From Bellilinea caldifistulae (GTDB taxonomy: Bacteria; Chloroflexota; Anaerolineae; Anaerolineales; Anaerolineaceae): a stretch of 32,000 nt of DNA. The stretch covers positions 30,001-62,000 of the forward strand of contig NZ_LGHJ01000008.1 in assembly GCF_001306055.1 (NCBI RefSeq), read 5' to 3'. The position numbers were made by a program, and so were the translations under genes. Shown one piece after another: positions 4,714 through 28,244 of the stretch; positions within the stretch are counted from its first letter, which is position 1, and each line of letters begins with the position of its first letter. The notes under the pieces were generated by a model. It was given only the letters and a program-made list of their open reading frames with translations. It had not been told where the DNA came from and did no database searches.

Positions 4714-4716
4714 TGC

Positions 4717-9047: not shown

Positions 9048-9096
9048 AGACTCCTCCTACGAGATGAAATCAATCATTTCAGCCAACTTCATTCTC

Positions 9097-13158: not shown

Positions 13159-16100
13159 GCTTCCACCACCACCTCATAGCCTTCATCCAGTTTGGCTTGA
13201 ATCTCGGCGCCGATGCTCTGCCAGAAGGCGTCGAATTCATCGCGGCGCACAAAGCGGCGCCCGGTTAATTTCTCCCGCAAGCTCAGGCGGTGCACCTTCT
13301 GCTCGGGCTTCTCACCGCCATCGCCCACTTTCTTTTGGGCTTCCCGTTGCGCCTGCCATTCGCGCTCGCAGCGGTCGAAGATGGCTTTGCGGTAGCCCGG
13401 GATTGCCATGCGCAAAGCCTCCAGCTCGCTCACCTTGCGCTTTTCCGAGGCAGCCAGCAACTTGTCGGCGGTCTTCAGATCATCAATTGCCGGCAGCGCC
13501 AGCAGCGCATTCGCACCGAAGTACTCGTCCAGGATCGCCCGCTGGCGCGAGAGCCCCAGGCGGGTGAATGCTTCTGCCGCCTCGATCTCGGACTTCAAGG
13601 CGGCAATCGCCTGATCGCAACTGGCGTAGGCAGCCTGATAGACCTGGCGATAGCGATCCAGCACCGCCAACGCCGCCTCCTGGAGTTGTTTCCACTTGGT
13701 CATGATGTCTTTTACCCCTACGATGGCATCGAAATCCTCCAGATTTTCGCGCGCCTTCTTTCCCGCCTCGCCCTCGAAGACCGCCGGCGTGCTGCGGGCG
13801 TAATCCAGCGCAGCCACATAGGTCAGATAGGCGCGGTCGCGCCCCTGCTCGACGAAGGTCTCATACGTTTTGAGGAACGCCGCCACACCTTTCCAGCCTT
13901 CTTGATCCTCGATGAAGCGGCGCACACACGCCACCGGGTCGCGCTGCGCCAAGGCTTGGGCGGTGACCGGCTCAACCCGCTGGTAGGTCTCCGGCAGAGG
14001 CAGCTTGAGGTCGCGCACCCGCACGCGGATGGCGTTCGCCTGGGTCGTCATCTTCTGCCCCAGCTCGCGGATGCGCTCCGCCAGACCATGGGCGGTGTCC
14101 GGCAAGCCAACCTCGCCCAAGGCGATCAGCCCGTCTTTGGCTTGCTTCATCTCGTCGGGTTTCAAGCCGCCCACTGTGGGGTAGAAGCGTGTCTTTTTGA
14201 ATTTGGTCGGCTTGGTGAACGCCTCTTCGGCGCGCGGATCGGAGACATCGTAGATGGGTTGGTCAGAATCGGCTGGCTGCAGATGCACCGCGCCGCCGCG
14301 CAGCATGGCTGCCAGGGTCAGGCGCACCAGGGCTTCTGGCCAGCCGAAGGGAATTCGCTCGAAGCTCTCCAGGATCGCCTTGCCGTCCAGGTCGAGCCCT
14401 TCATCTTCGCGGCGCTTCAGCTCATCGAAGATCGCCTCCACCAGCGGGGCGCTGCGCATCAAATGGTCCTGGGCGTCGAACAGATCCAGCGCTGGGTCCA
14501 GCCGCGCCAGGTTTTTCGCCTTCGCATCCAGGTAACGGGCGATGTTCTTCTCGTCAAAGGCTTTGTCAGCGTCTTTGAAGCGCTCATACAGGTTGCCCGC
14601 TACCACGCCGACGAATTCCTGCGCGATGGCTTTCAACTCCTTGGATCCGTCCAATTCCGCCCGATCACCAGAGTAGTAGGCCACGCCTCTGCGCAGGCAA
14701 CTCTCCAGTAATCCGACGATGTGATTTTCCAGTGCCGCGCGCTCCTTTTCCTTTTCCTTCAACACCCGCACGGTCTCGTCGCTGCGGTCGTTGCGCCACT
14801 TGGGCAGTTGGGGCACTTTTTCCAACGCCTCCAGGCGTTTGAGCTTCTCGACCAGCGAGCTTTCGCCGGCTGCCACCCACCAGATCACCTTGCCGCGCAC
14901 ACCTTTGCCCAGGTTTTCGAGCTCGATCTCTTCGACTTTCGGCGCAGAGAGCGGGCTGGAAAGCTCCACCAGGATCTCGCCGCCGGTGTTGATCGGCTCG
15001 CCGTCCAGGCTGAGCGAGAAGGGGATGATCCCGGTTGAACCGAGCTGGATCTTGAAATCGCCGAGCTTCGAACGGGTGAGCACGCGCTCTTTTAGCAGCT
15101 CGGTGGCTTTGCGCTTTGCCACCCCAACGCCGTAGTCGCGAATCTTGTCGATGATATCTTCTTCGACCCCGCGTTCTTTTTCGCTCAGGTAGCGGTATTG
15201 CTCTGTGGCTTCGTCCCTGGCTACCAGACCGGCTTTCTGCAGGCGGTCGAGGGTCGTGCGGACATCATCACGCAGTTTTGCCAGGTCTACGTCTATTTCG
15301 CTTGCCAACAGTCGGGCGATAGTTTCGGGGGTGCGCGGCACCCACTCGACGCGCGAGATCAGCCACAGCGCTTTGAGCACCCGGCTAGGGGGGATCGGCG
15401 TGCCGGGGATCTGCTGGTCGGTCTCCCGGATGAGTTTAATGCCTGTGGTCCCCAGATAATCCGATGAACTGAGTTCATCAGTCACCTGGTCAAAGATCAA
15501 ATCCAGGGGCGCCAAGATCCCCAGGGGATCCTCCGCCAGCCGAATCAAGACTCCCTGGACGACTCCGATCATGCTGCGTTCCGTGCCAGAGAGCTTGAAG
15601 CCGCGCATGGCGTTGAACAGCTCTTGAACCAGGGGGACCATGTAGGGCAGGAAGGGGTAAGAAGCGCGAAAACTTTCCCTGCTCAGGACGGCTAACTCGC
15701 GCTCGATTTGCAGGCGGCTCAAGTCAGCAAGCTGACCTTCCTTGTACAGCTCATCCACAGCGCCCAGGTTCGCCTCGCGTTTGCGCAGCAGGCGTTCTTG
15801 CACCACCCGGCGCACATCCTCGCCGGTCAAGGTGATCTTGGTCGAAAAACGGGCGTCCAATTTGCCCAGGCTGCTCAACTTGAGGCCGGTGCGCTCGACC
15901 ACCTGATCTAAGGCTTCTTGCGAGGTGCAGATAAACCAGATCCGGCCGCGCCCCTGCACGCCGCACTGTTCGACGATGGCACGTAGTTCCTCAATACGGT
16001 CGTTGCTATCGCCAATAAACTGACCCATCTCATCGATGACAAAGATCAAATGCGGTTCGCGCGATTTTACCTTCGGTGCATAGCTTTCCAGATAGGCTGT

Positions 16101-16913
16101 AATCTCCTTGGCGAGAAGCTCCGGGGTGACGCGATTGTGATCGCGTTGATAGGTTGCGATCGTCTCTCTGGCGCTTGCAATGGGTTTATCCATCGCCTTT
16201 GCCAGCGCCTCGGCGATTTCGTCGCCGTAAAATCCGTGCTCGGGGCGGTCCGCCTGCCAGGGGCGCCCAGTCTGTTGGCGATATGCTTCAAGGAAAGCGT
16301 CGTAAAGCCCTTCGCTCTGCAATTTGCGCTCCAAGCGAGCCAACCAGATGGTGGGGGCCAGGTTCTGGCTCTCGTAGAATGTTCGCAAGCAACTCTCGGT
16401 GACCGATTCAGGATTGGCTTGATCCAGCCTGGACTTGATTTCAAACGCCAGAGTCTGACACCAGGCCTTGTTCTTGACCTCGGAAAGCGCAGCCTTCAGA
16501 TCGGAGGATAGGTACAGTGTAGGATCATCCAGATGCACCTGGAAGATATCAATAGCGGTTTTTTGATTTTCTAGGTCAACCACCTCATTAGCCAGCAGGT
16601 TGCCCAAAACCTTTGCCAGGTGGCTCTTGCCGCTGCCAAAAAAACCCGCAATCCAAACCGCCATCCCGTCGCCGCCATCGCCTGTTTTGATGCGTTGCTC
16701 CAGGCTGTAGGTGAAATTATCCAGAAATTTTCGCAATTCGCGTGCCAGCGCGTCGGTGATCACAAATTGCTTCAGATCTTCCAGAAGATTTGCCCGGTCG
16801 TAGACTTTGACAGCCGGCTCGATCCTTCTGGACAAGTCACGAGCGATGACATCGCGGATTTTCATTCTTTCATTGCTCATCTTAGATCCTCGCTGCTCGG
16901 TAGTTGTATCCAT
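13155..16913 (-). CDS. brxC: BREX P-loop ATPase BrxC/PglY
   Basis: 1252 aa with Walker A GFFGSGKSH. The likely true start is the ATG at 16880 (MSNERMKIRD...), 1 nt after the brxB TAA stop, which gives 1241 aa. Confidence 0.93.
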   Translation of the reverse strand: MDTTTEQRGSKMSNERMKIRDVIARDLSRRIEPAVKVYDRANLLEDLKQFVITDALARELRKFLDNFTYSLEQRIKTGDGGDGMAVWIAGFFGSGKSHLAKVLGNLLANEVVDLENQKTAIDIFQVHLDDPTLYLSSDLKAALSEVKNKAWCQTLAFEIKSRLDQANPESVTESCLRTFYESQNLAPTIWLARLERKLQSEGLYDAFLEAYRQQTGRPWQADRPEHGFYGDEIAEALAKAMDKPIASARETIATYQRDHNRVTPELLAKEITAYLESYAPKVKSREPHLIFVIDEMGQFIGDSNDRIEELRAIVEQCGVQGRGRIWFICTSQEALDQVVERTGLKLSSLGKLDARFSTKITLTGEDVRRVVQERLLRKREANLGAVDELYKEGQLADLSRLQIERELAVLSRESFRASYPFLPYMVPLVQELFNAMRGFKLSGTERSMIGVVQGVLIRLAEDPLGILAPLDLIFDQVTDELSSSDYLGTTGIKLIRETDQQIPGTPIPPSRVLKALWLISRVEWVPRTPETIARLLASEIDVDLAKLRDDVRTTLDRLQKAGLVARDEATEQYRYLSEKERGVEEDIIDKIRDYGVGVAKRKATELLKERVLTRSKLGDFKIQLGSTGIIPFSLSLDGEPINTGGEILVELSSPLSAPKVEEIELENLGKGVRGKVIWWVAAGESSLVEKLKRLEALEKVPQLPKWRNDRSDETVRVLKEKEKERAALENHIVGLLESCLRRGVAYYSGDRAELDGSKELKAIAQEFVGVVAGNLYERFKDADKAFDEKNIARYLDAKAKNLARLDPALDLFDAQDHLMRSAPLVEAIFDELKRREDEGLDLDGKAILESFERIPFGWPEALVRLTLAAMLRGGAVHLQPADSDQPIYDVSDPRAEEAFTKPTKFKKTRFYPTVGGLKPDEMKQAKDGLIALGEVGLPDTAHGLAERIRELGQKMTTQANAIRVRVRDLKLPLPETYQRVEPVTAQALAQRDPVACVRRFIEDQEGWKGVAAFLKTYETFVEQGRDRAYLTYVAALDYARSTPAVFEGEAGKKARENLEDFDAIVGVKDIMTKWKQLQEAALAVLDRYRQVYQAAYASCDQAIAALKSEIEAAEAFTRLGLSRQRAILDEYFGANALLALPAIDDLKTADKLLAASEKRKVSELEALRMAIPGYRKAIFDRCEREWQAQREAQKKVGDGGEKPEQKVHRLSLREKLTGRRFVRRDEFDAFWQSIGAEIQAKLDEGYEVVVEA

Positions 16914-17406
16914 CTTTCACCCCCAAAAAATGGAGGGCTGGTCCATTTTCGGTGCCTGGAAAGGGGATCACCAGGGTGTTGGTGATTTTTCCTTCGATGG
17001 CTTCCAGAAGGGCGGAATAACTGATCCAAGGGAATAAGGCTGCGGTATGTTTGCAGAGCAAAATAACATTTGGGTTACCTTTTGCCGCTTGCTGTATCTT
17101 GGCAACCGCTTCCCTCTGCACCAGGCTGGCGAGACTGCGCCGGGCATCGGGCGAGCCTTCTGCATCCAGTTTAAATGCCCTCTCCAATAAATTCCGCTCT
17201 TTCAGAGAGTCGAAAACCAGGGTTCGGAAATCCAATACGGCTATCTGGACCCCTTGCGCCTTCAATTCCTGAATGACTTCTTCGTAACCTGCTCGAAACG
17301 AAAGCTCTTCCTCGGGAGGGTAAATCACCAAAAGCGCGCCCCCTGCGTGGGCGCCGGTCAATAGTTGGGAGCGCAGTAGATTCAATTTATCATTGATCAG
17401 GCTCAT
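16882..17406 (-). CDS. brxB: BREX protein BrxB (DUF1788)
   Basis: 174 aa, of the size and position expected between brxA and brxC. SD GGGGGA lies before the ATG, 7 nt after the brxA stop. Confidence 0.85.
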   Translation of the reverse strand: MSLINDKLNLLRSQLLTGAHAGGALLVIYPPEEELSFRAGYEEVIQELKAQGVQIAVLDFRTLVFDSLKERNLLERAFKLDAEGSPDARRSLASLVQREAVAKIQQAAKGNPNVILLCKHTAALFPWISYSALLEAIEGKITNTLVIPFPGTENGPALHFLGVKDGYNYRAARI

Positions 17407-17413
17407 ATTCCCC

Positions 17414-18175
17414 CTACACCTTAGTCAACTCAAGGTAGATCACTCCACCTTGAGATTCGTAGCGAACATAACCTTGTTGGTCAAGTTCCTCGAGCGCTGC
17501 GATCACATCTCGCAAAGTAAGCCCCATAGCTGCAAACAATCCGTGCTCTGGCGCTTTCACTATCGGTTCGCCCCCTCCCAAAATCAATTGGATAGCAAAC
17601 AGAATGACCTGAGGCGAAATATAGGGTCTGCGGATTTCTTTTTTGGCGGAGCCGCTGGCGTATCCGCAATCGCGAACCGCGCTCAAATAATGCCGCGCAA
17701 TCCGTTTACGGGTGACTGGGTTCCAGGTTTTAATGACCGGATGCGCTTTCTCCATAAATTCCAACTCGCGCTCGATGTCGCTCGTCTCTCCTTCAAATAT
17801 CGGACCGGACAGTTTCGGCGCTAACCATCGCTGGGATAGCTCATAAGTCAGAGCATCATTCCAAAGCAGTAATGTGAACGCCAGCAAGTTGGCTTGATCC
17901 GGATTTGCAACTCTACGGAAAGACGACACAAATAATGTATTCGCCTTGGGAGTGTCCTTGCGGAAGTAGCGCTCAGCCAATTTCCGGTACACTTCTTTGC
18001 GGCTGGAAATACTGGCTCGTCTGAGGATATTATCCTCCAAGATTAGCCGGTGGAGATCTTCACGGGCGTTCTCAGGGTTGATGTAGTCGATCACGCCGCG
18101 CAGCTCCTCCAGCATGGCTCCTTGCCGGCTGAGCAGAGCGGTAATTTTTATGGAGCGAGGTTCCGATGAGTTCAT
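17414..18175 (-). CDS. brxA: BREX protein BrxA (DUF1819)
   Basis: I use the internal start M61 of the 313 aa track ORF (MNSSEPRSIKI...), which gives 253 aa. The ATG at 18175-18173 overlaps the TGA of the upstream HTH gene (ATGA). It is the first core BREX gene. Confidence 0.85.
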   Translation of the reverse strand: MNSSEPRSIKITALLSRQGAMLEELRGVIDYINPENAREDLHRLILEDNILRRASISSRKEVYRKLAERYFRKDTPKANTLFVSSFRRVANPDQANLLAFTLLLWNDALTYELSQRWLAPKLSGPIFEGETSDIERELEFMEKAHPVIKTWNPVTRKRIARHYLSAVRDCGYASGSAKKEIRRPYISPQVILFAIQLILGGGEPIVKAPEHGLFAAMGLTLRDVIAALEELDQQGYVRYESQGGVIYLELTKV

Positions 18176-18396
18176 GAGCGTTTGAGTCCTTCTGCTTGAA
18201 TAACCACATCTGCTTCGTCCAACCTTTGCCCGGCAATCCAGTTGATCAGAGTTGCACGGTGAAAACGCCAGTGCCGACCGACCTTCTGGCAAGGTATTTT
18301 GCCCTCCTGAGCTAGTTTGTATAGAGAGGAACGAGGAATGCGGAGATATTGACAAACTTCGTTGATGGTCATAATTTCAGGGAATTCCGTGGACAT
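18172..18396 (-). CDS. Small excisionase/MerR-type helix-turn-helix protein (HTH_17-like), first gene of the BREX operon
   Basis: 74 aa. MTINEVCQYLRIPRSSLYKLAQEGKIPCQKVGRHWRF matches the excisionase-family DNA-binding domain pattern. It is coupled to brxA through an ATGA overlap. Confidence 0.8.
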   Translation of the reverse strand: MSTEFPEIMTINEVCQYLRIPRSSLYKLAQEGKIPCQKVGRHWRFHRATLINWIAGQRLDEADVVIQAEGLKRS

Positions 18397-18784: not shown

Positions 18785-19186
18785 ATGACCGACACGCCGA
18801 TCGATTTCGCAAAGAAACTGAACACGCTTTTTGAGACCAAAATCAAACCGGATGGAACCAAGTACACACAAGAGGAGGTGATCCAGGGAACCAAGGGTGT
18901 GCTAACCCGAGCCTATCTATGGAAACTGCGCACCGGGCGCGCTAAGAACCCCGGATTTAACGTCGTTCAGGCTTTAGCCGATTTCTTCGACATTGATATC
19001 AATTATTTTCGGGTTTCTGAAGACGAAGAGAAAGCGCTGCTCGAAAAAGCGCGACGAAACAAACTCGTGAGCGAGGTTGCATTACGGGCAAGCATGTTTA
19101 GCGAAGAAACCGTGCTGGCCATTATCAATATGATGGAATACATTGAAAAAAACCGTTCAGAGAAAGGCGAATCACAGGAGACTTGA
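18785..19186 (+). CDS. EspR-like (XRE-family) HTH nucleoid-associated/transcription regulator
   Basis: 133 aa. FAKKLNTLFETKIKPDGTKYTQEEV...YLWKLRTGRAKNPGFNVVQALADFFDIDINYF parallels M. tuberculosis EspR as I recall it from memory (FAARLNRLFDTVYPPGRGPHTSAEV...YLSQLRSGNRTNPSGATMAALANFFRIKAAYF). The length matches. Confidence 0.8.
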   Translation: MTDTPIDFAKKLNTLFETKIKPDGTKYTQEEVIQGTKGVLTRAYLWKLRTGRAKNPGFNVVQALADFFDIDINYFRVSEDEEKALLEKARRNKLVSEVALRASMFSEETVLAIINMMEYIEKNRSEKGESQET

Positions 19187-19717
19187 GTGGTGAACCCCAG
19201 ATTAAAATCCGAGAAAATTCTGGCAGATCTTCAATACAATTTTCAGGACTTCACGATTGACCATTTCATCAAGTGGATTGGGGAACTGAAGAGTCGCCGG
19301 ATTTTATCTTACCCTCTCAATATGTCGGCTGGGTTGTTTGGCGCCTGGTTGACGGACGATGAGGAACCGAATGAGTATATTTTCTATCGCGCCGACGTCC
19401 CCCCAATGCATCAAATCCACATCCAGCTCCATGAGTTGGCGCATTTTCTATTAGGACACCCAACGCTGCATATCACCCGTGAGCTACTGGCCGCTGCGTT
19501 ACGTGGGGAGGGGGAATTGCCATTTAATGAATTGGCCCGTTTGCGCTCGACCTTGAAACCGGAGGACTCGCGATCCATTCGCGAGGTCGAGTCGGAGATC
19601 CTGGCCTCTGTCATTCAGGAGCAGATCATCCGGCACTCACAACTTGATCAGCTAACCAGGGGCATCTCTTCCGATAAGAATATTGCTAATTATCTCAAGG
19701 ATCTTGGGATGATTTGA
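19187..19717 (+). CDS. ImmA/IrrE-like (DUF955) Zn-metallopeptidase
   Basis: 176 aa with a HExxH motif in QLHELAHFLLGH. The GTG start directly abuts the upstream stop. The pairing with an XRE/EspR-type HTH is typical. Confidence 0.7.
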   Translation: MVNPRLKSEKILADLQYNFQDFTIDHFIKWIGELKSRRILSYPLNMSAGLFGAWLTDDEEPNEYIFYRADVPPMHQIHIQLHELAHFLLGHPTLHITRELLAAALRGEGELPFNELARLRSTLKPEDSRSIREVESEILASVIQEQIIRHSQLDQLTRGISSDKNIANYLKDLGMI

Positions 19718-20850
19718 TGAACGCGGCGGTTGAGATTTCTCTGTGCATCCTGGCCTGGCTGGTCGCGCTGATCCGTCTGCCTTCCGTTTTGGAGAGCAAC
19801 GCATGGAGATCGGATCGCATCGCTTTCCGCATTTGGATCGCCACGTTTTTCTTCGCCTTGACCATGACCTTCCTGGTGACGCCGATAGGCGATGCGATCA
19901 ACCGCTTAACTGCGCCCAATTTTTCACGTCTGCTGGCCTACTGCTCGGTTGCTTTTACCCTGTATTTGACAACCTCATCCTCAATGGCCACATTTTCAAC
20001 GCCCAAAAATGCGCGCCAACTTCGCTATCTCAAACCTTACCTGCTGTTTACCCTTGGGCTGTTGACTGTCATTTATGTGTTTTTCGTCTCCCACACGTCC
20101 CGCTGGGTGGAGGAGCCCACACCGGCAACGGCTGCGGAAATGGCTTTCAAGCTGACCCTGTTTTCGTATGCAACGATTTTGTGCATCCTGATGGCGTTAG
20201 CCTGCTACCGCTATCTGGAGCAGGAAATGGTGGCGGTTACGAAATACCGGATCATCGCCATCATCCTGACAGCTTCAGGTGGCGCGGCCTTCTTCTTTAC
20301 CAAAACGATCCTCGCTCTCGGTTACCTCTGGACGCCGCTTGGCTCTCCCTCGATCCATACGATGTCCAAGGCTCTGATGACTGCCACTGCGATGTTGTGG
20401 GCTGGGTCGTTTTTGCACAACAATGTCTATACTCGTGCGCTCTCGATTTTCCGCGGGTTTCGATATTGGCTTGCCTATCAAGATCTTTCTTACCTGGTCA
20501 AATCCCTGGATCGTTACTGCCCCCCAGTGGCATTCATCGAAGAAAAGCCTTCTTTTGGCGGCTTCATGCGCAGATCTGAGTATTACCTGTACCGGGCAAC
20601 GATCCGGATTTTCGATGGGAAAGCATTCATCGGTGATATTCTGAATAGAGAAAAAGGCAAGGAACTCCCCAAAGGGTGGACAGATCTTACCCTCGAAGAG
20701 GCAAATCAAATCTTCCAGGCGTTGAAAAATATCTACGCCGTGGGGGATTTTTGGGATATCGTCCGCAGTTTCAGGATCGCGAGTAGAAATTTAGCGCGCT
20801 CTCGGTCTTTTGGCGCTCAGGAGGCGTACGGTTGGCGACCACAGTCATGA
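19717..20850 (+). CDS. Polytopic membrane protein with a cytosolic C-terminal domain, possibly a MAB_1171c-type putative transporter
   Basis: The N-terminal 240 aa or so contain several hydrophobic helices. The C-terminal 130 aa or so are soluble. The ATG at 19717 overlaps the upstream TGA (TGATG); the track start at 19714 is a TTG. The family name is from memory of actinobacterial HTH/ImmA neighbourhoods and is unverified. Confidence 0.65.
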   Translation: MNAAVEISLCILAWLVALIRLPSVLESNAWRSDRIAFRIWIATFFFALTMTFLVTPIGDAINRLTAPNFSRLLAYCSVAFTLYLTTSSSMATFSTPKNARQLRYLKPYLLFTLGLLTVIYVFFVSHTSRWVEEPTPATAAEMAFKLTLFSYATILCILMALACYRYLEQEMVAVTKYRIIAIILTASGGAAFFFTKTILALGYLWTPLGSPSIHTMSKALMTATAMLWAGSFLHNNVYTRALSIFRGFRYWLAYQDLSYLVKSLDRYCPPVAFIEEKPSFGGFMRRSEYYLYRATIRIFDGKAFIGDILNREKGKELPKGWTDLTLEEANQIFQALKNIYAVGDFWDIVRSFRIASRNLARSRSFGAQEAYGWRPQS

Positions 20851-21437
20851 ACGCTGCAACCGCCGATAAGCTCGCCGAGGTTGTCTCTTACGTCTTTCAC
20901 CCCCTCCTCGTCGTCATCCCCACCCTGGTGATCGCCATGGTGCGCCTGGGCAGCACCCTTGGGCAGGCGATTTTCTGGACGGTATTGTCGATCGTGAGCG
21001 TGAACGTGCCAATGGCAATATTGTTGTTCTGGGGTGTTCGCTCCGGCAAGTATTCCGACGCCAGTGTATCGATTCGTGAGCAGCGCACCAGCATCTACGC
21101 CGTCGGCGGCGCCTGCCTGGTGATTCTGCTGGCTGTGCTGATCATCGGCAAAGCTCCGGTGATTATCATAGCCTGCCTGATCTCAGCGGTGATTGCCACC
21201 GCGATCGGTTATTGGGTCAATCGCCACACCAAGCTCAGCCTGCACTCGGCAGCGATGGCGGGCTGCACTGCGGTGTTGCTGTGGACGGTTCCGCTGATCG
21301 GCGTGATCATGGCGGTATTTGCCCCGCTGGTCGGCTGGGCGCGCATTCGACTAAAGCATCACACCCCGGTTCAAATTCTGATTGGATGGATGGTGTCTAT
21401 GATTTGTGTGTTTGTGGTCTTTCAACTGATGCTGTAA
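20847..21437 (+). CDS. PAP2-superfamily-like integral membrane protein
   Basis: The ATG at 20847 overlaps the upstream TGA (ATGA). There are about 6 TM segments. The PAP2 motifs are degenerate: KYSDASVSIREQR, SLHS and ARIRLKHHTPVQILIG. Confidence 0.5.
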   Translation: MNAATADKLAEVVSYVFHPLLVVIPTLVIAMVRLGSTLGQAIFWTVLSIVSVNVPMAILLFWGVRSGKYSDASVSIREQRTSIYAVGGACLVILLAVLIIGKAPVIIIACLISAVIATAIGYWVNRHTKLSLHSAAMAGCTAVLLWTVPLIGVIMAVFAPLVGWARIRLKHHTPVQILIGWMVSMICVFVVFQLML

Positions 21438-21466
21438 TTCCGGCATGATCGCCGGATGAAATAAAA

Positions 21467-21502
21467 GGACGGCCGCTAACTGGTCAAGGTCGCCGGCCGT
21501 CC
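21467..21502. terminator. GC-rich hairpin between the PAP2-like and SSB-like genes
   Basis: GGACGGCCG (21467-21475) pairs with CGGCCGTCC (21494-21502), with an 18 nt loop. The U-tract (TTTTATTT) lies on the minus-strand side only. A second 5 bp hairpin, CCGGC/GCCGG, lies at about 21440-21455. Confidence 0.3.
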
Positions 21503-21599
21503 GGGTGAGCAGGTGTTCATGGCGTTTCCGCCACGGATCGCTGCCCGCTTTAATTATAACCGATTTGGTAGTGAAGCTCCTCTTCTCAGGAGGCGGTAC

Positions 21600-22079
21600 A
21601 TGGCAAGAAACAATCACGTCTGGGTCAAAGGCGACATCACCGGGGATATCTATTTCGATATCCTGAAGCTGGATGGCAAGGAGGTCCAATACCTGCGCAT
21701 GTACCTGATGATCAAAGGCGTCAAGGGCGCCAACGGCGTCAAAGGTCTGCGGGTCTGTGTGTACGGACCGCTGGCTGAGCTGGTCTATGGTCATGTTCAC
21801 AAAGGCAGCCGGATTGGGGTCATCGGTCATATCCAGCAGCGCAACCTGCGGGATGGAAAGATGGTGTTTGAGATTGTCGCCGTTGAAGTGGATTTTTTGC
21901 GCAATATCGAGTGGCAAACCGGAGAGCGAGTGCGACAGGACCTGGTGCAGCGCGGTTTGCTGCGCTCATCCCATCGGGATGAAGACAACGGCGGGGGTGG
22001 CGTCACAGACTACGCCGACCTCTCCGAGCACCTCAGCGTTGCCGTTCCGGAGGATTTGATCGAAGATGAACAAGCCTGA
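21600..22079 (+). CDS. ssb: Single-stranded DNA-binding (OB-fold) protein, SSB-like
   Basis: An internal ATG at 21600 lies 6 nt after AGGAGG. NHVWVKGDITGD...LRVCVYGPLAE...HKGSRIGVIGHIQQRN...FEIVAVEVDFL follows the SSB OB-fold pattern. The tail is acidic (EDLIEDEQA). Confidence 0.65.
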   Translation: MARNNHVWVKGDITGDIYFDILKLDGKEVQYLRMYLMIKGVKGANGVKGLRVCVYGPLAELVYGHVHKGSRIGVIGHIQQRNLRDGKMVFEIVAVEVDFLRNIEWQTGERVRQDLVQRGLLRSSHRDEDNGGGGVTDYADLSEHLSVAVPEDLIEDEQA

Positions 22080-22581
22080 AGAGATCACGATTTCCATCTG
22101 GGTGCTCATCCTCCCTGCCCTGGCGATTCTGTTGGGGATTGGCTGGTTTGCCTCGCCGCGCGACGAGAACAACCGCCCGCTGTTGCTGCTACCAGATGTC
22201 AAAGCGGTAGAGGAATACCGGCGGCTGGCAAACCACTGGAGGGATGAGTTACGGCTGGTGGATGGTGAGATTGCCCTGATCCTGGCCAGCAATACATCCG
22301 ATTTATTCAGCCGATCTCGCCAGGCGCAGAACACCCTGGAGCACAACCTGCGCATCATTCAGGAGATTGACCGTCATGACCCCCCGGCAACGCTGGTGGG
22401 TTTACAGGAAGAGCTCAAGCTGGTTTCGCAATCTTATCTGGAAGCCTCGCGCCTGGCGCTGCGCTGGCTCAGTTTGCCCGATCCCGCTAACCACGATCAG
22501 GCACAAAATAAGCTGGTCGAATCCCGAAACATGCTGAGCGACATGGAGGCGAGCCAATGGCTGGAGAAGAGATCACCATAG
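22066..22581 (+). CDS. Membrane-anchored hypothetical protein
   Basis: 171 aa with one N-terminal TM helix (ISIWVLILPALAILLGIGWF). It overlaps the ssb-like stop by 14 nt and the next gene by 25 nt. Confidence 0.55.
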   Translation: MNKPEEITISIWVLILPALAILLGIGWFASPRDENNRPLLLLPDVKAVEEYRRLANHWRDELRLVDGEIALILASNTSDLFSRSRQAQNTLEHNLRIIQEIDRHDPPATLVGLQEELKLVSQSYLEASRLALRWLSLPDPANHDQAQNKLVESRNMLSDMEASQWLEKRSP

Positions 22582-23816
22582 AGAACCTGCGCCAGTTGCT
22601 GTCGATCCAGACCGATCTGCGCGAGCAGGCTGAAACGCGCTGGCGCAAGGCTCAACGCGTGCTGGTATCGTTGTTGGAAACCTTTGCGCCAGAAGAAGTG
22701 GATCAGCGCCTGAAAAACGGACGCCCGCTCGACCACCTGCCGGTGGATGAGCTGGAGCAGTTGGTGCGCCAGCAGGTGGGCAACCGCCTGCACCAGGTAC
22801 AGCGCTTATTGAACGACAGCCAAACCGCCCAGCGCCTTCAAAACCTGCGCGAGCAATTAGAAAAATTGATAGCCCAAAATGAGGAACTCCAGAAAGAGAA
22901 CAAGCAGTTACAAGACCGGATTAACCGTCTGGACGCTAAGAAGATCGATATGCTAGACCAGCTCGCAGCGCTGCGCGCTGTATCTCAGGAGAAACAACAA
23001 ATTATGGCAGAACAAAAATCGGGCATTTCTGACCAGAATGAAAGCGATCCGCCTGAGCCTGCCTGGATGGCGATCTGGCGGCAGGTAGAGACCTTCGAGC
23101 GCGACGCCAGCGTCCTGAAGATGATTGCCGAGACTGGCCTGGCGCGCCGCCCGGTGATCGAAGCCCAGGCAGCCGAACTGCTCGGCATCAAAAAAGCCGG
23201 CGGCAGCCTCCAGGCTTTGATGACCCGACTGGAGGATCTCCACCTGATCGAGAGATTCCGCCCGTGGACGACGGATGGCGCCGGCACCGGCGGCAAATTT
23301 CCGGACCTGGTGCGCCTGACCGATCAGGGTCGCCTGGCGTACTGGCTGCTGACTAACCAACAGCCGCAGGTGAACGAATATGATCTATTGCTCGAACGCC
23401 ATGTTTCGCCGGAGCACACCCTGCTCAACCTGCAGGCTGCCGATGTGCTGCGCGAGGCTGGTTACCAGGTGGACCTGACCCCGCCGGAGATAACGTTGCC
23501 GGATGGCGGCTTGTTCCGCCCCGACCTGGTGATCGTTGATGACCAGGGAGTGACCCATTTCGTGGAAGTGGAGCGCGACGTGGATAAAAACCTCGAGCAG
23601 CGCCAGGCGAAGTGGCGCAATTTCTACCAGGCCAGCGGGGGGAGGATGTTTGTGGTGTGCGACAACCGGTCGTGTATGAGGAATATCCGCAGCGAGATTA
23701 ATTACTGCCTGGGGAATAGACCGCTTGTTGTTTCACTGACCAATCTGGCGGATTTGCAAACGGGGAAACGAGGAGAGGAAGATGGTATATGGCTAGAAAC
23801 GCGAAATCGGGGGTAG
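22557..23816 (+). CDS. Coiled-coil / winged-helix / PD-(D/E)xK-like protein, replication-relaxation-like
   Basis: 419 aa. It has a long heptad-rich N-terminus (LREQLEKLIAQNEELQKENKQLQDRINRLD), a wHTH-like LLGIKKAGGSLQALMTRLEDLHLIER, and a C-terminal RPDLVIVDD...HFVEVERDVDK nuclease-fold signature. Confidence 0.55.
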   Translation: MAGEEITIENLRQLLSIQTDLREQAETRWRKAQRVLVSLLETFAPEEVDQRLKNGRPLDHLPVDELEQLVRQQVGNRLHQVQRLLNDSQTAQRLQNLREQLEKLIAQNEELQKENKQLQDRINRLDAKKIDMLDQLAALRAVSQEKQQIMAEQKSGISDQNESDPPEPAWMAIWRQVETFERDASVLKMIAETGLARRPVIEAQAAELLGIKKAGGSLQALMTRLEDLHLIERFRPWTTDGAGTGGKFPDLVRLTDQGRLAYWLLTNQQPQVNEYDLLLERHVSPEHTLLNLQAADVLREAGYQVDLTPPEITLPDGGLFRPDLVIVDDQGVTHFVEVERDVDKNLEQRQAKWRNFYQASGGRMFVVCDNRSCMRNIRSEINYCLGNRPLVVSLTNLADLQTGKRGEEDGIWLETRNRG

Positions 23817-23843
23817 TGTTTTATTGTCACAGAACAATGGGTT

Positions 23844-23903
23844 ATCTACCGGTCTGTGGTTCAGCCGCACGCGGAGCGGATCGGCTGGATGCACGGGTTA
23901 GCC
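23844..23903 (-). repeat. attC-like site c (60 bp), terminal and probably degenerate
   Basis: Minus-strand sense: GGCTAAC-CCGTGCATCC-AGCCG(AT)CCGC-TCC-GCG(T)GCGGCT-GAACCACAGACC-GGTAGAT. It starts 6 nt after the TAG of the 272 aa gene and aligns along its length with site b. The R' box has G in place of the first T of GTT. Confidence 0.5.
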
Positions 23904-23909
23904 CGCACC

Positions 23910-24728
23910 CTACTTTTCGGGAATGCGCCGGACAATAGTGCCTTTCAGAATGTCTTCAAATGAGAGTTTGCCTGTGGGTCCAAACTGAAGTACCAAAGCA
24001 AACTCGCGATTGCGGTACGTTTTGTCTAACTCTTGCCAATGGTCAATCAAATACTGGATTGCACCCATTGTTCCAATTACGCCAAGGCCAGCCCCAATAA
24101 TAATTGTGGTATCGTTGCGTGTCTGGTCAATTACCCGTTCAAGTATTGCTATATCGTGTTGATTACTGGCTGGCCGTATAACTTCGCCCTTATCCTTTCC
24201 CTTCATTACTTGGATAGCTGTTCCGTTATGAGATATTTGCAACTGGACAAGGTTATGAATGACACAGTAGTTCGTAACTACATTGTAGCCCTGACTGCCC
24301 GCAGTGATTATTGAACGAGTCGAAAAATTTATTTCACTTTCTTCCATTGGGCTTGCATTGACGCTTACAGTCAAGGGGCGGAAGAAAGCGTATTTCTCCT
24401 GTAGAGATTTTCTGACGACAGGTGGAATGTACTCGAATGCGTCGACCGTCAAGGCTTTTGCAAGTCGCGCACTGATGCTGAGTTCCTCGGTTGGGATAGT
24501 AATTCCTTGATACGAGCGCGGTAGTCCATCAAAGCCGACAGCACAACCACGCGGGATAAGGAGACTGGAAAGATAAACGACTGATTGTCTCGCTTTTTTG
24601 TCAGCTCCGAGAAAGTTGAACAGTTTGCGTTGTCTACTGAGGCTGAAAATAATGAAGCCGACGAAAGCAACGATAAACCCAATAACATATGGAGCGATTG
24701 TAAGGGTTATATCCCCGATAGATGGCAT
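23910..24728 (-). CDS. Single-pass membrane protein with a Gly-rich-loop Rossmann-like (possibly SLOG/LOG-like) domain; cargo of cassette 2
   Basis: 272 aa with an N-terminal TM helix (ITLTIAPYVIGFIVAFVGFIIF). Strand-plus-glycine-loop signatures SIITAGSQGYN and TTIIIGAGLGVIGTMGA are present. The gene is AT-rich. The domain call is pattern-based only. Confidence 0.6.
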   Translation of the reverse strand: MPSIGDITLTIAPYVIGFIVAFVGFIIFSLSRQRKLFNFLGADKKARQSVVYLSSLLIPRGCAVGFDGLPRSYQGITIPTEELSISARLAKALTVDAFEYIPPVVRKSLQEKYAFFRPLTVSVNASPMEESEINFSTRSIITAGSQGYNVVTNYCVIHNLVQLQISHNGTAIQVMKGKDKGEVIRPASNQHDIAILERVIDQTRNDTTIIIGAGLGVIGTMGAIQYLIDHWQELDKTYRNREFALVLQFGPTGKLSFEDILKGTIVRRIPEK

Positions 24729-24768
24729 AAAGACCAGACCTTTCTGAAGACTACGATTGCAGCGAGCA

Positions 24769-24832
24769 GGCTAACGATTTACGCTCGAGCCGCAGCGCTG
24801 AAGTCGCTGTCGGCTCAAAGCGCGGGTTAGCC
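24769..24832 (-). repeat. attC-like site b (64 bp)
   Basis: Minus-strand sense: GGCTAAC-CCGCGCTTT-GAGCCG(A)CAGCG-ACTTCAG-CGCTGCGGCTC-GAGCGTAAATC-GTTAGCC. The outer 7-mers are perfectly complementary and fit RYYYAAC/GTTRRRY except for one position each. The TAA stop of the 302 aa gene (24827-24829) lies inside GGCTAAC. The 5' arm carries one bulged base. Confidence 0.6.
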
Positions 24833-25735
24833 GCTGTGCTCTTTAACTGGAGCCTTATCGTTGGAGCGCTGAGCCTCATAAAGCCAAAAATTCACTGGGA
24901 ACCGCGGGTCATATGTTTTGAACCCACGCGATGATGTCAGCCCTACGCGAAGCCTGTGATTCTTGCAACGCTCATTGAGGTATTTGATAACACAAAATCT
25001 TTCGCGCTCGCTGTTACTAAGGCTAACATTTGTGTTTGAGCCGAATTCAAAGGTTAATTGCCCCTGCTCAGTAGGTAACCAAGACATATATCTTGAGTGT
25101 GTTAAGTACGAATACGCTCCGATACCTGCAAAAAGATCCGCCACTTGGCAAATGGGCTCTTTTGCTGATACGACTTCGCGAATTTGCAAAATCTGAAATT
25201 CATGTAAGAGGCGAATACTAAAGGGTTGTTGACCAAATAGATCGGTGTTTATGCTTATCGTAAGGCCTGCACTATCTAGATAATCCTGAACACTTGCCCA
25301 ATCTAGGGCTGAATTCTGATCAGGGAAAAGATACCACCTGCTTTCAGAAGGCCATCTATGCTGCAATACATTCTTGAAGAGATGGTAGTACATTCTCTCA
25401 ATGTTCGCTATGTCATCTCTGCCGCGGATCTGGTGACGGCTATCTTGCGTATCCCATATCAACACATCTATCCGTAGATGATTGCAGACAGCCAACCTTA
25501 TAGCAACATCAATGATTTTGAAGGCAGCAAAACGCTCGCGTGCTTGTCGAAGTTTAGCCCATTTGAATTCTCTTATTTCTGAACTTTCGATGCATTCGCG
25601 AAATGTTTGTTTGATCTTGTCATGATTTTCAGCCGCAAAGGTAACAACTGCGATACTACGATACCGTTCTTTGGTGTAGTAGGATTCGTCAGCATACGCT
25701 ATGTGTGTGGCAACTATGTCAATGTTCATTATCAT
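24827..25735 (-). CDS. DUF3800-like protein; cargo of cassette 1
   Basis: 302 aa. N-terminal IAYADESYY and C-terminal CQVADLFAGIGAY resemble the DUF3800 DESG...Q-ADl signature as I remember it. The gene is AT-rich and has no obvious SD. Confidence 0.6.
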   Translation of the reverse strand: MIMNIDIVATHIAYADESYYTKERYRSIAVVTFAAENHDKIKQTFRECIESSEIREFKWAKLRQARERFAAFKIIDVAIRLAVCNHLRIDVLIWDTQDSRHQIRGRDDIANIERMYYHLFKNVLQHRWPSESRWYLFPDQNSALDWASVQDYLDSAGLTISINTDLFGQQPFSIRLLHEFQILQIREVVSAKEPICQVADLFAGIGAYSYLTHSRYMSWLPTEQGQLTFEFGSNTNVSLSNSERERFCVIKYLNERCKNHRLRVGLTSSRGFKTYDPRFPVNFWLYEAQRSNDKAPVKEHSG

Positions 25736-25760
25736 AATCTGGTTGGCATCGGTGGAAGGC

Positions 25761-25845
25761 GGCTAACAAATTAATAATTGATGTGGCGGTCAGTGCCAAT
25801 GCCGAAGCCCAAATCAACTTGCCGCCACATCAATCCGAGTTGAGC
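25761..25845 (-). repeat. attC-like site a (85 bp)
   Basis: Minus-strand sense: GCTCAAC-TCGG-ATTGATGTGGCGG-(32 nt)-CCGCCACATCAAT-TATTAATTT-GTTAGCC. GCTCAAC fits RYYYAAC exactly. The 13 bp arms are perfect (25777-25789 and 25822-25834). GTTAGCC lies 31 nt upstream of the 302 aa ORF. Confidence 0.5.
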
Positions 25846-25875
25846 TAAGCCGTTTTATACAACACCTCCAGCTAT

Positions 25876-25904
25876 TAGAGGATTTAAAGCACACTGTCAA
25901 GTCA
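25876..25904 (-). promoter_or_regulatory. Weak candidate promoter reading into the cassette array
   Basis: On the minus strand, TTGACA, a 17 nt spacer, then TAATAG, upstream of site a. The -10 element is poor (3/6). Confidence 0.2.
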
Positions 25905-26066
25905 GCTCCGCGGTCAAACTGGTGATTATGAATGAATTTTAACCAAAAAACCATTCGGCGCAAGCAGGAAACCGGGCAAAAGAGCCGTTTGAAAGAATTT
26001 GGCTTTGATTGAAGTCTCTGAAGCTTGGGAGCAGGACGGATAGGTCATTTTTGTCTGAATCATGGT

Positions 26067-26143
26067 TGGTTCAAACCCCCTGGTATAAACCCGGAACACA
26101 CCTGGTTTAAACCGGGGTAACGGCTTAAGGAGGGTTTGAACCA
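26067..26143. repeat. 12 bp perfect inverted repeat enclosing two direct repeats, in an ORF-free AT-rich spacer
   Basis: TGGTTCAAACCC (26067-26078) and GGGTTTGAACCA (26132-26143). The 53 nt loop holds CCTGGTATAAACCCGG and CCTGGTTTAAACCGGG (13/16 identical) and the palindrome GGTTTAAACC. Confidence 0.6.
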
Positions 26144-26220
26144 GTCTGGTAATTTTAACCGTGTTAAATTGGACAAAAATTATTGAGAATTGGTTGTAGA
26201 ATTGATTTTTAGAGTTATCG

Positions 26221-26694
26221 ATGATCCGCTCGTTGTTTTCCGCCCTTGGAATCTTGATCCGCCTGCTCCTGGCGCTCGTCCTGATCGCCGGATTAGTTCT
26301 CGTCGCCTTCGTGGCGTACCGAGGCTCTCAGCCCATGCAGCTTGCCAGCGCGAACGGGATGACCTACTGGCAGTTCATGCGCGACCGGATCGGCGCCATC
26401 CGTGAGTTGCCGGTAAAATGCCAGCAGATGCACTTCACCAGCTTTGCGATCGCAGTGCCGCTTTACCCGGCTTTGTACACCTACATCGGCATCTACCCGG
26501 AGAGTTATCTCGCCGGGCACACCCAGCCCGATCCGTCGATCCCCAGGGATATCGGCTGGACCGACGCGCCAGATACCTGGTGGCGGCTGGTGGAGGACGT
26601 CTCCTGGGAAGCCTGGGTCACCCAGCACCTGCCCACGGTCATGCCCGAGTGCAACCTGAAACCGCCATCCCTGCCTGGTGTTAGCAAACCTTAA
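26221..26694 (+). CDS. Membrane-anchored hypothetical protein
   Basis: 157 aa with an N-terminal TM helix (LGILIRLLLALVLIAGLVLVAFVAY). The gene is GC-rich. Its TAA stop lies inside the left copy of the IS target duplication. Confidence 0.6.
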   Translation: MIRSLFSALGILIRLLLALVLIAGLVLVAFVAYRGSQPMQLASANGMTYWQFMRDRIGAIRELPVKCQQMHFTSFAIAVPLYPALYTYIGIYPESYLAGHTQPDPSIPRDIGWTDAPDTWWRLVEDVSWEAWVTQHLPTVMPECNLKPPSLPGVSKP

Positions 26695-26707
26695 CCAAAA
26701 CAAGGGT
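26690..26707. repeat. Left target-site duplication of the IS
   Basis: CTTAACCAAAACAAGGGT, identical to 28243-28260. The last 1-2 nt may instead belong to the terminal inverted repeat, so the TSD is 16-18 bp. Confidence 0.8.
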
Positions 26708-28244
26708 GTCATTGTTCAGGGAAAATGACACCCTAAGTGGTAAGGGAAAATGTCACCTTGACCAATGGGTGAGTGTAAGTATAATCTACAGCACCCCAAA
26801 AGAAAGGCGAGAAGATCAGGAGTAATCCGGTCAGCTCGTCTTTTTTCATGGTAGTTTGTCATCCCAATTTATTGCCTTTCAACGATTTGCCATACTGCTT
26901 CCAAGGGTGGTCAGCAGGGGGTTTCCAGGGTTGTCTGGGTTGTTTGGGCAGGGTAGTGGCTTGTGGCATATCAGGTGGTGGTGCGAGGGTAGCTGGGTGA
27001 AATTGACCGACCCGAGGGGGAGCGGAGGTGGCAGGCTGAAAGGTGATTAGGTGCTGTCCCTGGTAGAAAACGGCCAGACTGCCATCCATGGCGTGGTGCA
27101 GCTCGACCCTGGCTTTAGCGTAGCTCTTGCGGTGGGGTCCGGGCGGGATCTGGAGGCGATACTTGTTGAAAGGGATGGTATTATCGTTAGTCACGGTGCG
27201 GGGGTACTTGAAGCAGAAGTAGTCGGCTGGATCACGATCGGGTGGCCAGGGCAGATAAGCCGAGCCCGGTTGAGCTGCTTCGATCTGAAAGCGGGCATTG
27301 AACTTGGGCAGGTAAGCTGCCAGGACCCGGTTGGCACTCTCCAGGTCGTTAGCTCCCGCCTTGCGTAATTCCTTGACCAGCCGATCCTGGAGGGTGCCCC
27401 ACAGGCGTTCGACACGCCCTTTGGCCTGTGGGCTGCGGGCAGCGATCAATTGGATGCCCAATTCGTCCACCAAGCGCCCAAACTGGGTGCGCGGCAGCCC
27501 GCCGTACAGCTCTTGCTCGATGCTTGGCTGGCTAGGGCTCTGAAAGATGGTATGCTGATCGGCGTAGATCGACTGGGGAATCCCTTTGCTTCTGCAAACC
27601 TGCTCCAGCACCAGGAAGTAGCCAGCCGCATCTTCTTCTTCCCGAAAGACTGCCCAGGGCACTTCGTTGTCGGCATCATCGATCATGGCCACCAGGGTTA
27701 ACCACGGACCACGCCCTTCCAACCAATCGTGGCGACTGCCGTCAGTTTGCAGCATCATCCCCGCCTGCGGGTAGCGCTCTCGGCGACTGCGATACTCGGG
27801 AGCTCGCCGCTTCCGGGGGCTGCCTTGCCCAGCTGCCCGTCGGATGCGCCGCAACGTTGAGCGCGATACCACGATCGGCTCGGCCTGTTCAGCCAGCTCT
27901 TCGGTGAAGTGGCAGTCGTTGTAGTCCCGGTAGGTCTCCTTTGCCAACCGGAGGATCTCCTGCCTCATCACCTCTGAGATGCGGTTGGCAGGGCTTCTGC
28001 CACGGTTCCCGTGCTCCAGGGCAGCTATCCCTCGCTGACGATATGCTGCCACTAACCGGCGAAACTGCCGCTTTGAGATGCCAAGCACTTCGGCTGCCTG
28101 TTGGGCTCGTATTTTTCCGGCTTCATAGTCGATCACCATCTTCAATTTGTGCTGTTCTTTCATCGTCAATGTCACCTTGTTTTCCATGGGGTGACATTTT
28201 CCCTGAACAGTCAAGGAGTGTCAATATCGCTGAACAACAACACT
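26706..28244 (-). mobile_element. Insertion sequence of about 1.54 kb, ISNCY/IS1202-group-like
   Basis: The terminal inverted repeats are GTGTCATTGTTCAGGGAAAATGACACCC (left) and GTGTTGTTGTTCAGCGATATTGACACTCC (right, reverse complement), about 22/28 identical. There is a single DDE transposase ORF. The flanking direct repeat is 16-18 bp. Subterminal AGGGAAAATGNCACC motifs lie at 26718-26732, 26743-26757 and 28190-28204 (reverse complement), with a degenerate copy at 28217-28231. Confidence 0.85.
26859..28187 (-). CDS. DDE (rve-type) transposase, ISNCY/IS1202-like
   Basis: The likely start is MENKVTLTMKEQHKL (ATG at 28187); the track start at 28214 is 9 codons upstream. It has an N-terminal HTH (AAEVLGISKRQFRRLVAAYRQRGIAALEHGNRGR). 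The catalytic-core pattern is LQTDGSRHDW ... IDDADN ... IYADQHTIF ... SPQAKGRVER. Confidence 0.88.
   Translation of the reverse strand: MENKVTLTMKEQHKLKMVIDYEAGKIRAQQAAEVLGISKRQFRRLVAAYRQRGIAALEHGNRGRSPANRISEVMRQEILRLAKETYRDYNDCHFTEELAEQAEPIVVSRSTLRRIRRAAGQGSPRKRRAPEYRSRRERYPQAGMMLQTDGSRHDWLEGRGPWLTLVAMIDDADNEVPWAVFREEEDAAGYFLVLEQVCRSKGIPQSIYADQHTIFQSPSQPSIEQELYGGLPRTQFGRLVDELGIQLIAARSPQAKGRVERLWGTLQDRLVKELRKAGANDLESANRVLAAYLPKFNARFQIEAAQPGSAYLPWPPDRDPADYFCFKYPRTVTNDNTIPFNKYRLQIPPGPHRKSYAKARVELHHAMDGSLAVFYQGQHLITFQPATSAPPRVGQFHPATLAPPPDMPQATTLPKQPRQPWKPPADHPWKQYGKSLKGNKLG

Follow-up and report, generated by a model that had tools for sequence, protein, structure and literature searches.

Two adjacent AT-rich genes in the genome of Bellilinea caldifistulae, a thermophilic member of the Chloroflexota, are separate integron gene cassettes, independent of each other and unrelated in function. 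They lie in a 32,000-nt stretch of contig NZ_LGHJ01000008.1 (positions 30,001 to 62,000 of the forward strand; hereafter the window, numbered from its first nucleotide), next to a bacteriophage exclusion (BREX) island, and are here called gene A (302 aa) and gene B (272 aa). The explanation that we hold to be probable is that they form a CALIN-type cluster (cluster of attC sites lacking integron-integrases) of two unrelated single-gene cassettes, with A encoding an accessory anti-phage nuclease and B a membrane-tethered ligand-binding protein. The low-GC block at 23.8–26.2 kb would then have been acquired horizontally as a short integrase-less cassette cluster beside BREX. Protein A would serve autonomously as an accessory nuclease against phages, with RNA/DNA hybrids or other intermediates of phage replication as possible substrates; for B, our best guess is an enzyme or sensor that is tethered to the membrane, binds a ligand and would act alone.

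A first-pass annotation, made from the sequence of the window, had delimited both ORFs, described them as AT-rich cassette cargo beside a BREX island and supposed that, if separate cassettes, they may act independently; all of these points held. The two ORFs share one strand, lie 98 nt apart and encode proteins identical to BECAL_01133 (A; the start in the NCBI record is two codons later) and BECAL_01132 (B) of B. caldifistulae, both annotated ‘hypothetical protein’. GC content amounts to 0.436 in gene A and 0.452 in gene B (0.43 and 0.44, respectively, at third codon positions, GC3) vs. 0.55–0.61 (GC3 0.66–0.80) in the flanking genes, and the low-GC block extends from about 23840 to 26220. 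Feature coordinates are compiled in Table 1.

Inspection of the gene borders revealed attC-type sites. The TAA stop codon of gene A sits inside the R″ box GGCTAAC, whose exact inverse, GTTAGCC, follows 50 nt further along the minus strand. As single-stranded DNA, this site folds at –19.4 kcal/mol (z = –3.85), with none of 200 shuffled sequences folding as well, and the border between cassettes A and B falls at G|TTAGCC (24775/24774). Compared with the attC architecture (RYYYAAC as R″, then L″…L′ and GTTRRRY as R′, in an imperfect hairpin), the site of cassette A is complete and that of cassette B partial: the R″ box of the latter starts 7 nt past the gene B stop and is the same as in attC_A, and CCAGCCGA/GCGGCTG persists as its inner stem. 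A GTTAGCC border lies 32 nt upstream of the gene A ATG, marking the 5′ border of cassette A, and 47 nt upstream of the gene B ATG. Alignment showed the R″ and L″ boxes to be common to the window sites and the attCs of genuine arrays. The attC calls relied on direct inspection of stop-adjacent sites and array repeats; a regex/energy detector, which was noisy in GC-rich loci and returned similar counts on both strands, was not relied on.

A further hairpin (25777–25834) upstream of gene A was also considered as a non-coding RNA (ncRNA) of the type associated with DUF3800 genes and rejected, as no Rfam match was obtained at E ≤ 10 over 23400–26900. Together with the adjacent GTTAGCC, the hairpin is better explained as part of a probable attC of a preceding cassette. 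The low-GC leader upstream of cassette A contains a perfect 12-nt inverted pair (26067–26078/26132–26143) and presents neither a recognizable attI nor a clean cassette; it may be a cassette poor in ORFs or what is left of an integron platform. None of the tested window ORFs gave a Phage_integrase Pfam match and a tblastn search with the IntI protein of a genuine integron (L004, see below) was blank over the window, so the cluster is classed as an integrase-less, CALIN-type remnant. Matches in a promoter and terminator scan of the cassette region were no more frequent than in shuffled sequence.

Homologues of both genes reside in true integron arrays. A gene B homologue (P0142) belongs to the textbook integron L004, with divergent intI, attI and at least 15 cassettes that each possess an attC of ~130 nt; its intI carries the IntI-specific patch YPGAHKQWIWQYVFP and its attI ends in GTTAGGC. 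Clear attCs of 72, 130, 131 and 154 nt follow B homologues in L004 and L090–L095, and in most B loci a GTTRRRY border precedes the start codon by 42–50 nt (47 nt in the window). Similarly, the long L107 array, whose attCs measure ~130 nt, includes as a cassette a gene A homologue with 59% identity (P0018). This homologue and gene A of the window are alike in having their stop within R″ and the upstream border GTTAGCCGCC, and upstream borders of gene A homologues were found at –29 to –38 nt from the start. The A family occurs as a lone cassette at least in the window, L107 and L037, and an A homologue with 76% identity from a Chloroflexus sp. metagenome-assembled genome (MAG; L105) has kept its cassette border and a truncated attC. 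The clade of the window's protein B consists of a solitary cassette. At 90% identity, protein B clusters with sequences from Chloroflexota and from a Thermoguttaceae (Planctomycetota) MAG, with copies on contigs of 132–420 kb, indicating that cassette B would have moved between phyla very recently.

The two genes do not travel together. Searches returned 342 homologues of gene A and 55 close homologues of gene B; the neighbourhood sample for A comprised 83 loci (80 genome loci with 34–57% identity, covering many bacterial phyla as well as several archaea, plus three further loci). A B homologue lay within 7–8 kb in none of these 83 A loci, nor did any of 24 B loci harbor an A homologue. This complete lack of co-occurrence establishes A and B as independent units.

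In form, A and B resemble bacteriophage resistance integron cassettes (BRiCs), known from mobile and sedentary integrons and described as small, promoter-less single-gene cassettes bounded by attC, many of unknown fold and also found outside integrons (10.1101/2024.07.02.601719); the comparison made here is at the level of this description. The present case differs in its host, a thermophilic member of the Chloroflexota and not a proteobacterium, in the lack of intI, attI and a cassette promoter (Pc), in the decay of one attC and in that an anti-phage phenotype of A and B is putative. Overall, the locus exemplifies a known phenomenon, integron cassettes that carry candidate defence genes close to a defence island; its host is unusual and its form degraded and integrase-less.

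Profile and structural model identify protein A as a diverged DUF3800 superfamily protein with an RNase H2-like fold. Pfam DUF3800 (PF12686) matched over almost its full length (profile positions 1–145 of 149; 17.0 bits, E = 0.01), many A homologues at 45–52% identity have a precomputed PF12686 match, and UniRef calls the identical protein DUF3800. The ADES (residue 15) and QVADLF (residue 197) motifs that had led the first-pass annotation to DUF3800 are present, and D16–E17, D95 and Q197xxD200 (Q197-V-A-D200) were invariant in 47 aligned A-family sequences. Many further invariant residues fall in a C-terminal extension of ~95 aa (NFWxYxPQ..DKAP) located outside the Pfam model. An AlphaFold2 (AF2) model of high confidence (predicted local distance difference test, pLDDT, 88.4; predicted template modelling score, pTM, 0.89) retrieved archaeal RNase HII (1eke; E = 4.5e-5, probability 1.0) as the best Foldseek match in the PDB, followed by human RNase H2A (3puf) and RNase HI enzymes. 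Given this fold and the intact D-E…D…QxxD carboxylate set, protein A is most likely a metal-dependent nuclease, as far as can be predicted from the model. The earlier description of DUF3800 as a family with no assigned function is partly out of date: published models assign an RNase H2-like nuclease fold, and links to retrons and to Cas12a2/Cas12a3 have been reported.

Specifically, the DUF3800 protein of type VII retrons was modelled on the same two templates, 1EKE and 3PUF (PMC7736814), the Cas12a2-associated TPR-DUF3800 protein has been described as an RNase H fold (PMC10910872), and DUF3800 is reported to be a frequent companion of mobile elements and defence systems (PMC13594972). Protein A shares with these proteins, and with the PADLOC candidate PDC-M04A, the DE/QxxD motifs, the RNase H2-like fold and an occurrence in defence or mobile contexts. 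Unlike them, it is a stand-alone protein of ~300 aa with the additional C-terminal extension and lacks a reverse transcriptase, TPR or Cas partner. Its canonical DEDD residues are intact, as is the Q of its QxxD motif; in the retron DUF3800, the set reads DEED and the Q is absent. Eleven orphan ncRNA motifs have been associated with DUF3800 genes (PMC5737381). No Rfam DUF3800 ncRNA motif was present in the window or in 25 A-family loci, setting A apart in this respect too, and many A loci have no intergenic room for an ncRNA.

The first-pass annotation had proposed both genes as defence candidates, to be screened with PADLOC and for defence genes near their homologues. For A, this candidacy gained support. 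PADLOC (PADLOC-DB v2.0.0 of 2023, which predates the BRiC papers) returned PDC-M04A for residues 13–142 (E = 6e-7) as the one model matched by protein A, and 43 of the 47 aligned family members gave a weak match to the same model over their N-terminal half. A search for other PDC-M04 components beside A (both proteins were scanned) found protein B to match no model. Clustering of the neighbours in the 80 A genome loci revealed three dominant families, identified by Pfam as HsdS, HsdR and HsdM, and a smaller set comprising Type III Mod and Res. Type I restriction-modification (R-M) genes accompanied the A-family gene in 41 of the 83 loci, always on the same strand, and the strict order hsdS/M–A–hsdR, often with overlapping or near-abutting codons, was seen in 25; seven further loci contained a Type III system. 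Among the 50 loci with flanks of 3 kb or more to either side, 33 (66%) were R-M associated. These neighbourhoods make protein A a credible stand-alone defence nuclease, albeit a predicted one. As the family is found with three types of R-M system and alone as a cassette, A would be autonomous and not bound to one particular complex as its obligate partner, and it appears to require no fixed protein or ncRNA partner. A clade of DUF3800 proteins embedded in R-M operons that also forms an integron cassette, with neither ncRNA nor protein partner, is what the present analysis adds.

Embedding of this kind has precedents. Candidate systems of the PDC series owe their definition to being embedded in loci of BREX, DISARM or Type I R-M, and prrC is cited as the archetype of Type I-embedded genes (10.1101/2024.01.29.577857); guilt-by-embedding makes use of such Type I R-M arrangements (10.1101/2024.01.29.577857; PMC11411939). 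With at least 25 loci between hsdS/hsdM and hsdR, the A family resembles other genes found there (prrC, rlo genes, tgvAB, PDC/HEC); gene A of the window, by contrast, is an integron cassette and part of neither an R-M nor a BREX operon, and the RNase H-like fold of A is unlike the ABC-ATPase/anticodon nuclease architecture of PrrC or that of GmrSD. Fic/DOC, ORF6N and Abi_C-domain genes recur beside the A-family gene in Type I R-M operons (L009, L019/L020, L021/L025/L026), and such A-carrying loci are multi-gene embedding hotspots. In the Chloroflexus sp. MAG mentioned above, the A homologue is found beside a NotI-type Type II R-M system, a 1555-aa AAA_16-TPR (STAND-like) NTPase and a HEPN_Swt1 protein (L105:7001–14897), a region that looks like a compact defence island.

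Protein B belongs to a large orphan superfamily: a profile search returned 696 representative clusters (E ≤ 1e-3; clusters at 50% identity). A single N-terminal transmembrane (TM) helix (about residues 5–30), as the first-pass annotation had noted, precedes an alpha/beta domain, and 141 of 143 superfamily representatives have the helix directly before the domain. Lysine and arginine residues are enriched after the helix (2.6 vs. 0.3 before it), placing the N-terminus outside, the C-terminus inside and the domain in the cytoplasm. Fifty diverse superfamily members gave no match to Pfam or PADLOC. The confident AF2 model (pLDDT 85, pTM 0.82) retrieved BcsB flavodoxin-like and GH115/GH84/GH67 N-terminal domains as best Foldseek matches in the PDB, at E ≥ 3e-3 and TM-scores of 0.3–0.37, none of them a convincing analogue, and neither a structure search of BFVD nor a PDB sequence profile search returned anything. 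Conserved across the superfamily are an AG-x4-GT-x-GA motif, without a conserved glutamate, and G[SGA]xx[YF]N (127 of 149 representatives), with E82, G144, N149 and G214 being invariant. In the model, the conserved residues map to the C-termini of strands and the N-termini of helices, the usual ligand crevice of alpha/beta folds. Their position makes a pocket for a small, possibly phosphate, phosphorylated or nucleotide ligand plausible.

A defence role for protein B is weakly supported, and the first-pass annotation was over-confident in listing it as a candidate on a par with A. Its candidacy draws mainly on the prior that integron cassettes are anti-phage gene reservoirs, as has been demonstrated experimentally, with about a third of protective cassettes encoding TM helices (10.1101/2024.07.02.601719). 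To this prior, a few defence-like neighbourhoods can be added: outside integrons, one B homologue is found among EAD7-TPR, HNH and helicase-nuclease genes (L003) and another among recombinases and an EVE-domain gene (L002). No plasmid relatives of B were found.

Several observations weigh against the explanation favored here. With 17.0 bits, protein A scores below the Pfam gathering threshold of 21, it matches PDC-M04A over its N-terminal half only (profile positions 7–133 of 232), and its presumed catalytic geometry derives from sequence positions and fold. Regarding the cassettes, attC_B has decayed and does not fold significantly better than shuffled sequence (z = –0.8). Neither intI nor attI nor Pc was found in the window. 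The two cassettes may be expressed at low levels or be immobile. Viral-contig relatives were found for neither family and context offers no direct phage link, leaving the anti-phage function of A, along with its substrate, as something that we infer from family and neighbourhood. The same applies even more to an anti-phage role of the B family: protein B gave no match in Pfam, NCBIfam, PADLOC or PHROGs, and its distant relatives (23–24% identity) keep other company. In all three cases examined, these are translationally coupled to a homologous protein of 480–713 aa, two of the three partners containing a C-terminal uridine-cytidine-kinase/PRK-like domain (PDB profile E about 1e-6) behind an unannotated N-terminal domain of ~430 aa. 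One of the pairs (L110) is located among deoC, gap, tpiA and secG, i.e. glycolysis genes and SecG. For the wider superfamily, this context points away from defence. A faint Pfam hint at a glycosyltransferase identity of the partner could not be confirmed by PDB profile search, while the kinase domain is solid.

From these observations it might be argued that neither protein has a role in immunity: A would be an accessory nucleic-acid-processing enzyme of the RNase H type and B a membrane-associated metabolic or envelope protein, both carried as adaptive or neutral cargo. The housekeeping-like surroundings and kinase-coupled partner of the distant B relatives are consistent with this view, as are the blank defence-database results for B, the carbohydrate-related nature of its weak structural matches and the fact that the majority of integron cassettes have no defence role. 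Against it count the R-M association of two-thirds of the well-flanked A loci (66%) and the similarity of A to a PADLOC candidate, as well as the defence-like and recombinase-rich surroundings of some close B homologues (L003, L002). We regard it as unlikely, if the strongest of the alternatives.

A second alternative concerns A alone. By analogy to PrrC, the protein could be a guard that stays latent while bound to a Type I R-M complex and is set free upon phage anti-restriction, in which case the cassette copy would be orphaned and either inert or deregulated. The same-strand placement of the A family between hsdS and hsdR, with overlapping or nearly overlapping codons, mirrors that of prrC. 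Yet the family also associates with Type III R-M (7 loci) and NotI-type Type II R-M and stands alone as a cassette in the window, L107 and L037. No hsd genes are present in the window, where gene A is thus not R-M-embedded. We consider a latent guard rather improbable. An extended version of our own explanation is similarly speculative and we would not expect it to hold: that B, founder of a widespread family with ~700 clusters, no database model and a fold lacking close solved or viral analogues, is tethered to the inner membrane face and, in its solitary, integron-mobilised form, is a new single-gene anti-phage effector or sensor binding a nucleotide-like ligand, and that A is an autonomous RNase H2-like immune nuclease repeatedly recruited by R-M operons as a second line.

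The first-pass annotation had further read protein B as a membrane-tethered nucleotide sensor or processor of the LOG/SLOG type, a reading that gained no support and that we now deem very unlikely. Both motifs behind it exist (IITAGSQG at residue 140 and IIIGAGLGVIGTMGA at residue 209), supplying the glycine-rich strand-loop-helix elements GSQGYN and AGLGVIGTMGA. With LOG/SLOG proteins, B shares the alpha/beta architecture and glycine-rich loops at strand ends. The conserved residues occupy phosphate-ligand positions of alpha/beta folds, and the distant relatives are paired with a nucleoside-kinase-like protein. However, no LOG, SLOG, TIR or DprA structure was found among the top 50 PDB Foldseek matches, of which the best, BcsB and glycoside hydrolase (GH) domains, reached a query-normalized TM-score of no more than 0.37, and the PDB sequence profile search was blank. 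Nor are the signature motifs conserved across the superfamily: only 34 of 149 representatives carry the GxGxxG[TS] pattern, and the glutamate of the LOG-type PGGxGTxxE motif is missing.

Finally, the idea of one co-transcribed two-gene defence system, consisting of a nuclease and a membrane effector or sensor, which the adjacency of A and B on one strand, the short intergenic distance, their equally low GC and the multi-gene nature of the PDC-M04 candidate might suggest, is effectively refuted by the absence of co-occurrence at 83 A and 24 B loci, the complete attC between the genes, their solitary presence in other integron arrays and the lack of any PADLOC model for B.

As unrelated single-gene cassettes, A and B provide two clonable candidates from the Chloroflexota, a phylum in which, to our knowledge, experimental work on integron cargo or on immunity is lacking. 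Protein A ties together DUF3800/RNase H2-like nucleases, Type I/III R-M-embedded genes and integron cassettes, which suggests one small nuclease module that is exchanged among these platforms. Protein B reveals a large superfamily without Pfam, NCBIfam, PADLOC or structural annotation, for which the model and invariant residues can be used for mutagenesis. Should neither gene be anti-phage, the locus would still be a clean integrase-less cassette cluster beside a defence island.

Table 1. Coordinates of the cassette region, its surroundings and the gene pairs formed by distant protein B relatives (window numbering unless a locus is given)
Feature	Position	Strand	Details
UvrD-like helicase gene	418–2562	–	GC 0.44, GC3 0.38; abuts brxL directly
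Type 1 BREX island, complete	2641–18355	–	BrxA, BrxB, BrxC, PglX, PglZ, BrxL and embedded GmrSD_N gene (Pfam)
GmrSD_N/DUF262 gene	7266–9047	–	593 aa; inside BREX operon, between PglX and PglZ
PglX gene	9097–13158		
Seven ORFs separating BREX from cassettes	18785–23816	+	One single-stranded DNA-binding protein (SSB)-like match, few sub-threshold matches (Pfam)
Degenerate copy of insertion sequence (IS) terminal repeat	23814–23839		77% match
Decayed attC of cassette B	23836–23903	–	R″ GGCTAAC; inner stem retained; R′ degenerated to GGTAGAT
Gene B	23910–24728	–	272 aa
attC of cassette A	24769–24832	–	64 nt; R″ GGCTAAC, imperfect L″/L′ stem, R′ GTTAGCC
Gene A	24827–25735	–	302 aa
Probable attC of preceding cassette	25761–25845	–	Candidate R″ GCTCAAC; L″/L′ hairpin 25834–25777 (13–18 bp); R′ GTTAGCC 25767–25761; z = –2.7
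Low-GC leader 5′ of cassette A	25767–26220	–	~455 nt, GC 0.435; 57-aa ORF 25926–26099; four GGTTYAAACC palindromes 26067–26143
IS element	26706–28243	–	Helix-turn-helix (HTH) + rve transposase 26859–28214; terminal inverted repeats of 26–30 nt; right border of cassette cluster region
Distant B relative with 480–713 aa partner	L110:5876–8864		
Distant B relative with 480–713 aa partner	L114:6554–8858		
Distant B relative with 480–713 aa partner	L118:884–3858		

The BREX island named as a neighbour by the first-pass annotation proved to be a complete type 1 operon, from which the cassette block is separated by 5.5 kb. The cassettes are neither embedded in nor abutting the brx operon, which ends at 18355 and is followed by seven intervening plus-strand ORFs. 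No tRNA and, at gathering threshold, no Rfam family was detected in the window. Where the first-pass annotation had placed a mobile-element maintenance module on the other flank, a GC-rich 157-aa ORF and an IS element with repeats at 26706–26757 and 28189–28243 lie to the right of the cassettes. A degenerate copy of its terminal repeat is found directly beside the decayed R′ of attC_B, so that IS-end-like sequences lie on both sides of the cassette block; this copy may have been left by a former IS insertion, through which attC_B was eroded, or may have arisen by chance.

BrxU-type type IV restriction enzymes are known as embedded genes of BREX loci, and the GmrSD_N/DUF262 gene resembles this type. 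The low-GC helicase gene next to brxL may also have joined the island as an accessory by horizontal transfer. Within the PglX gene, a middle block of ~2 kb (especially 9501–11500) has a GC content of 0.39, vs. 0.61–0.66 at the gene ends, a difference suggesting that horizontally acquired DNA has taken the place of a module inside the gene, possibly of its target-recognition region.

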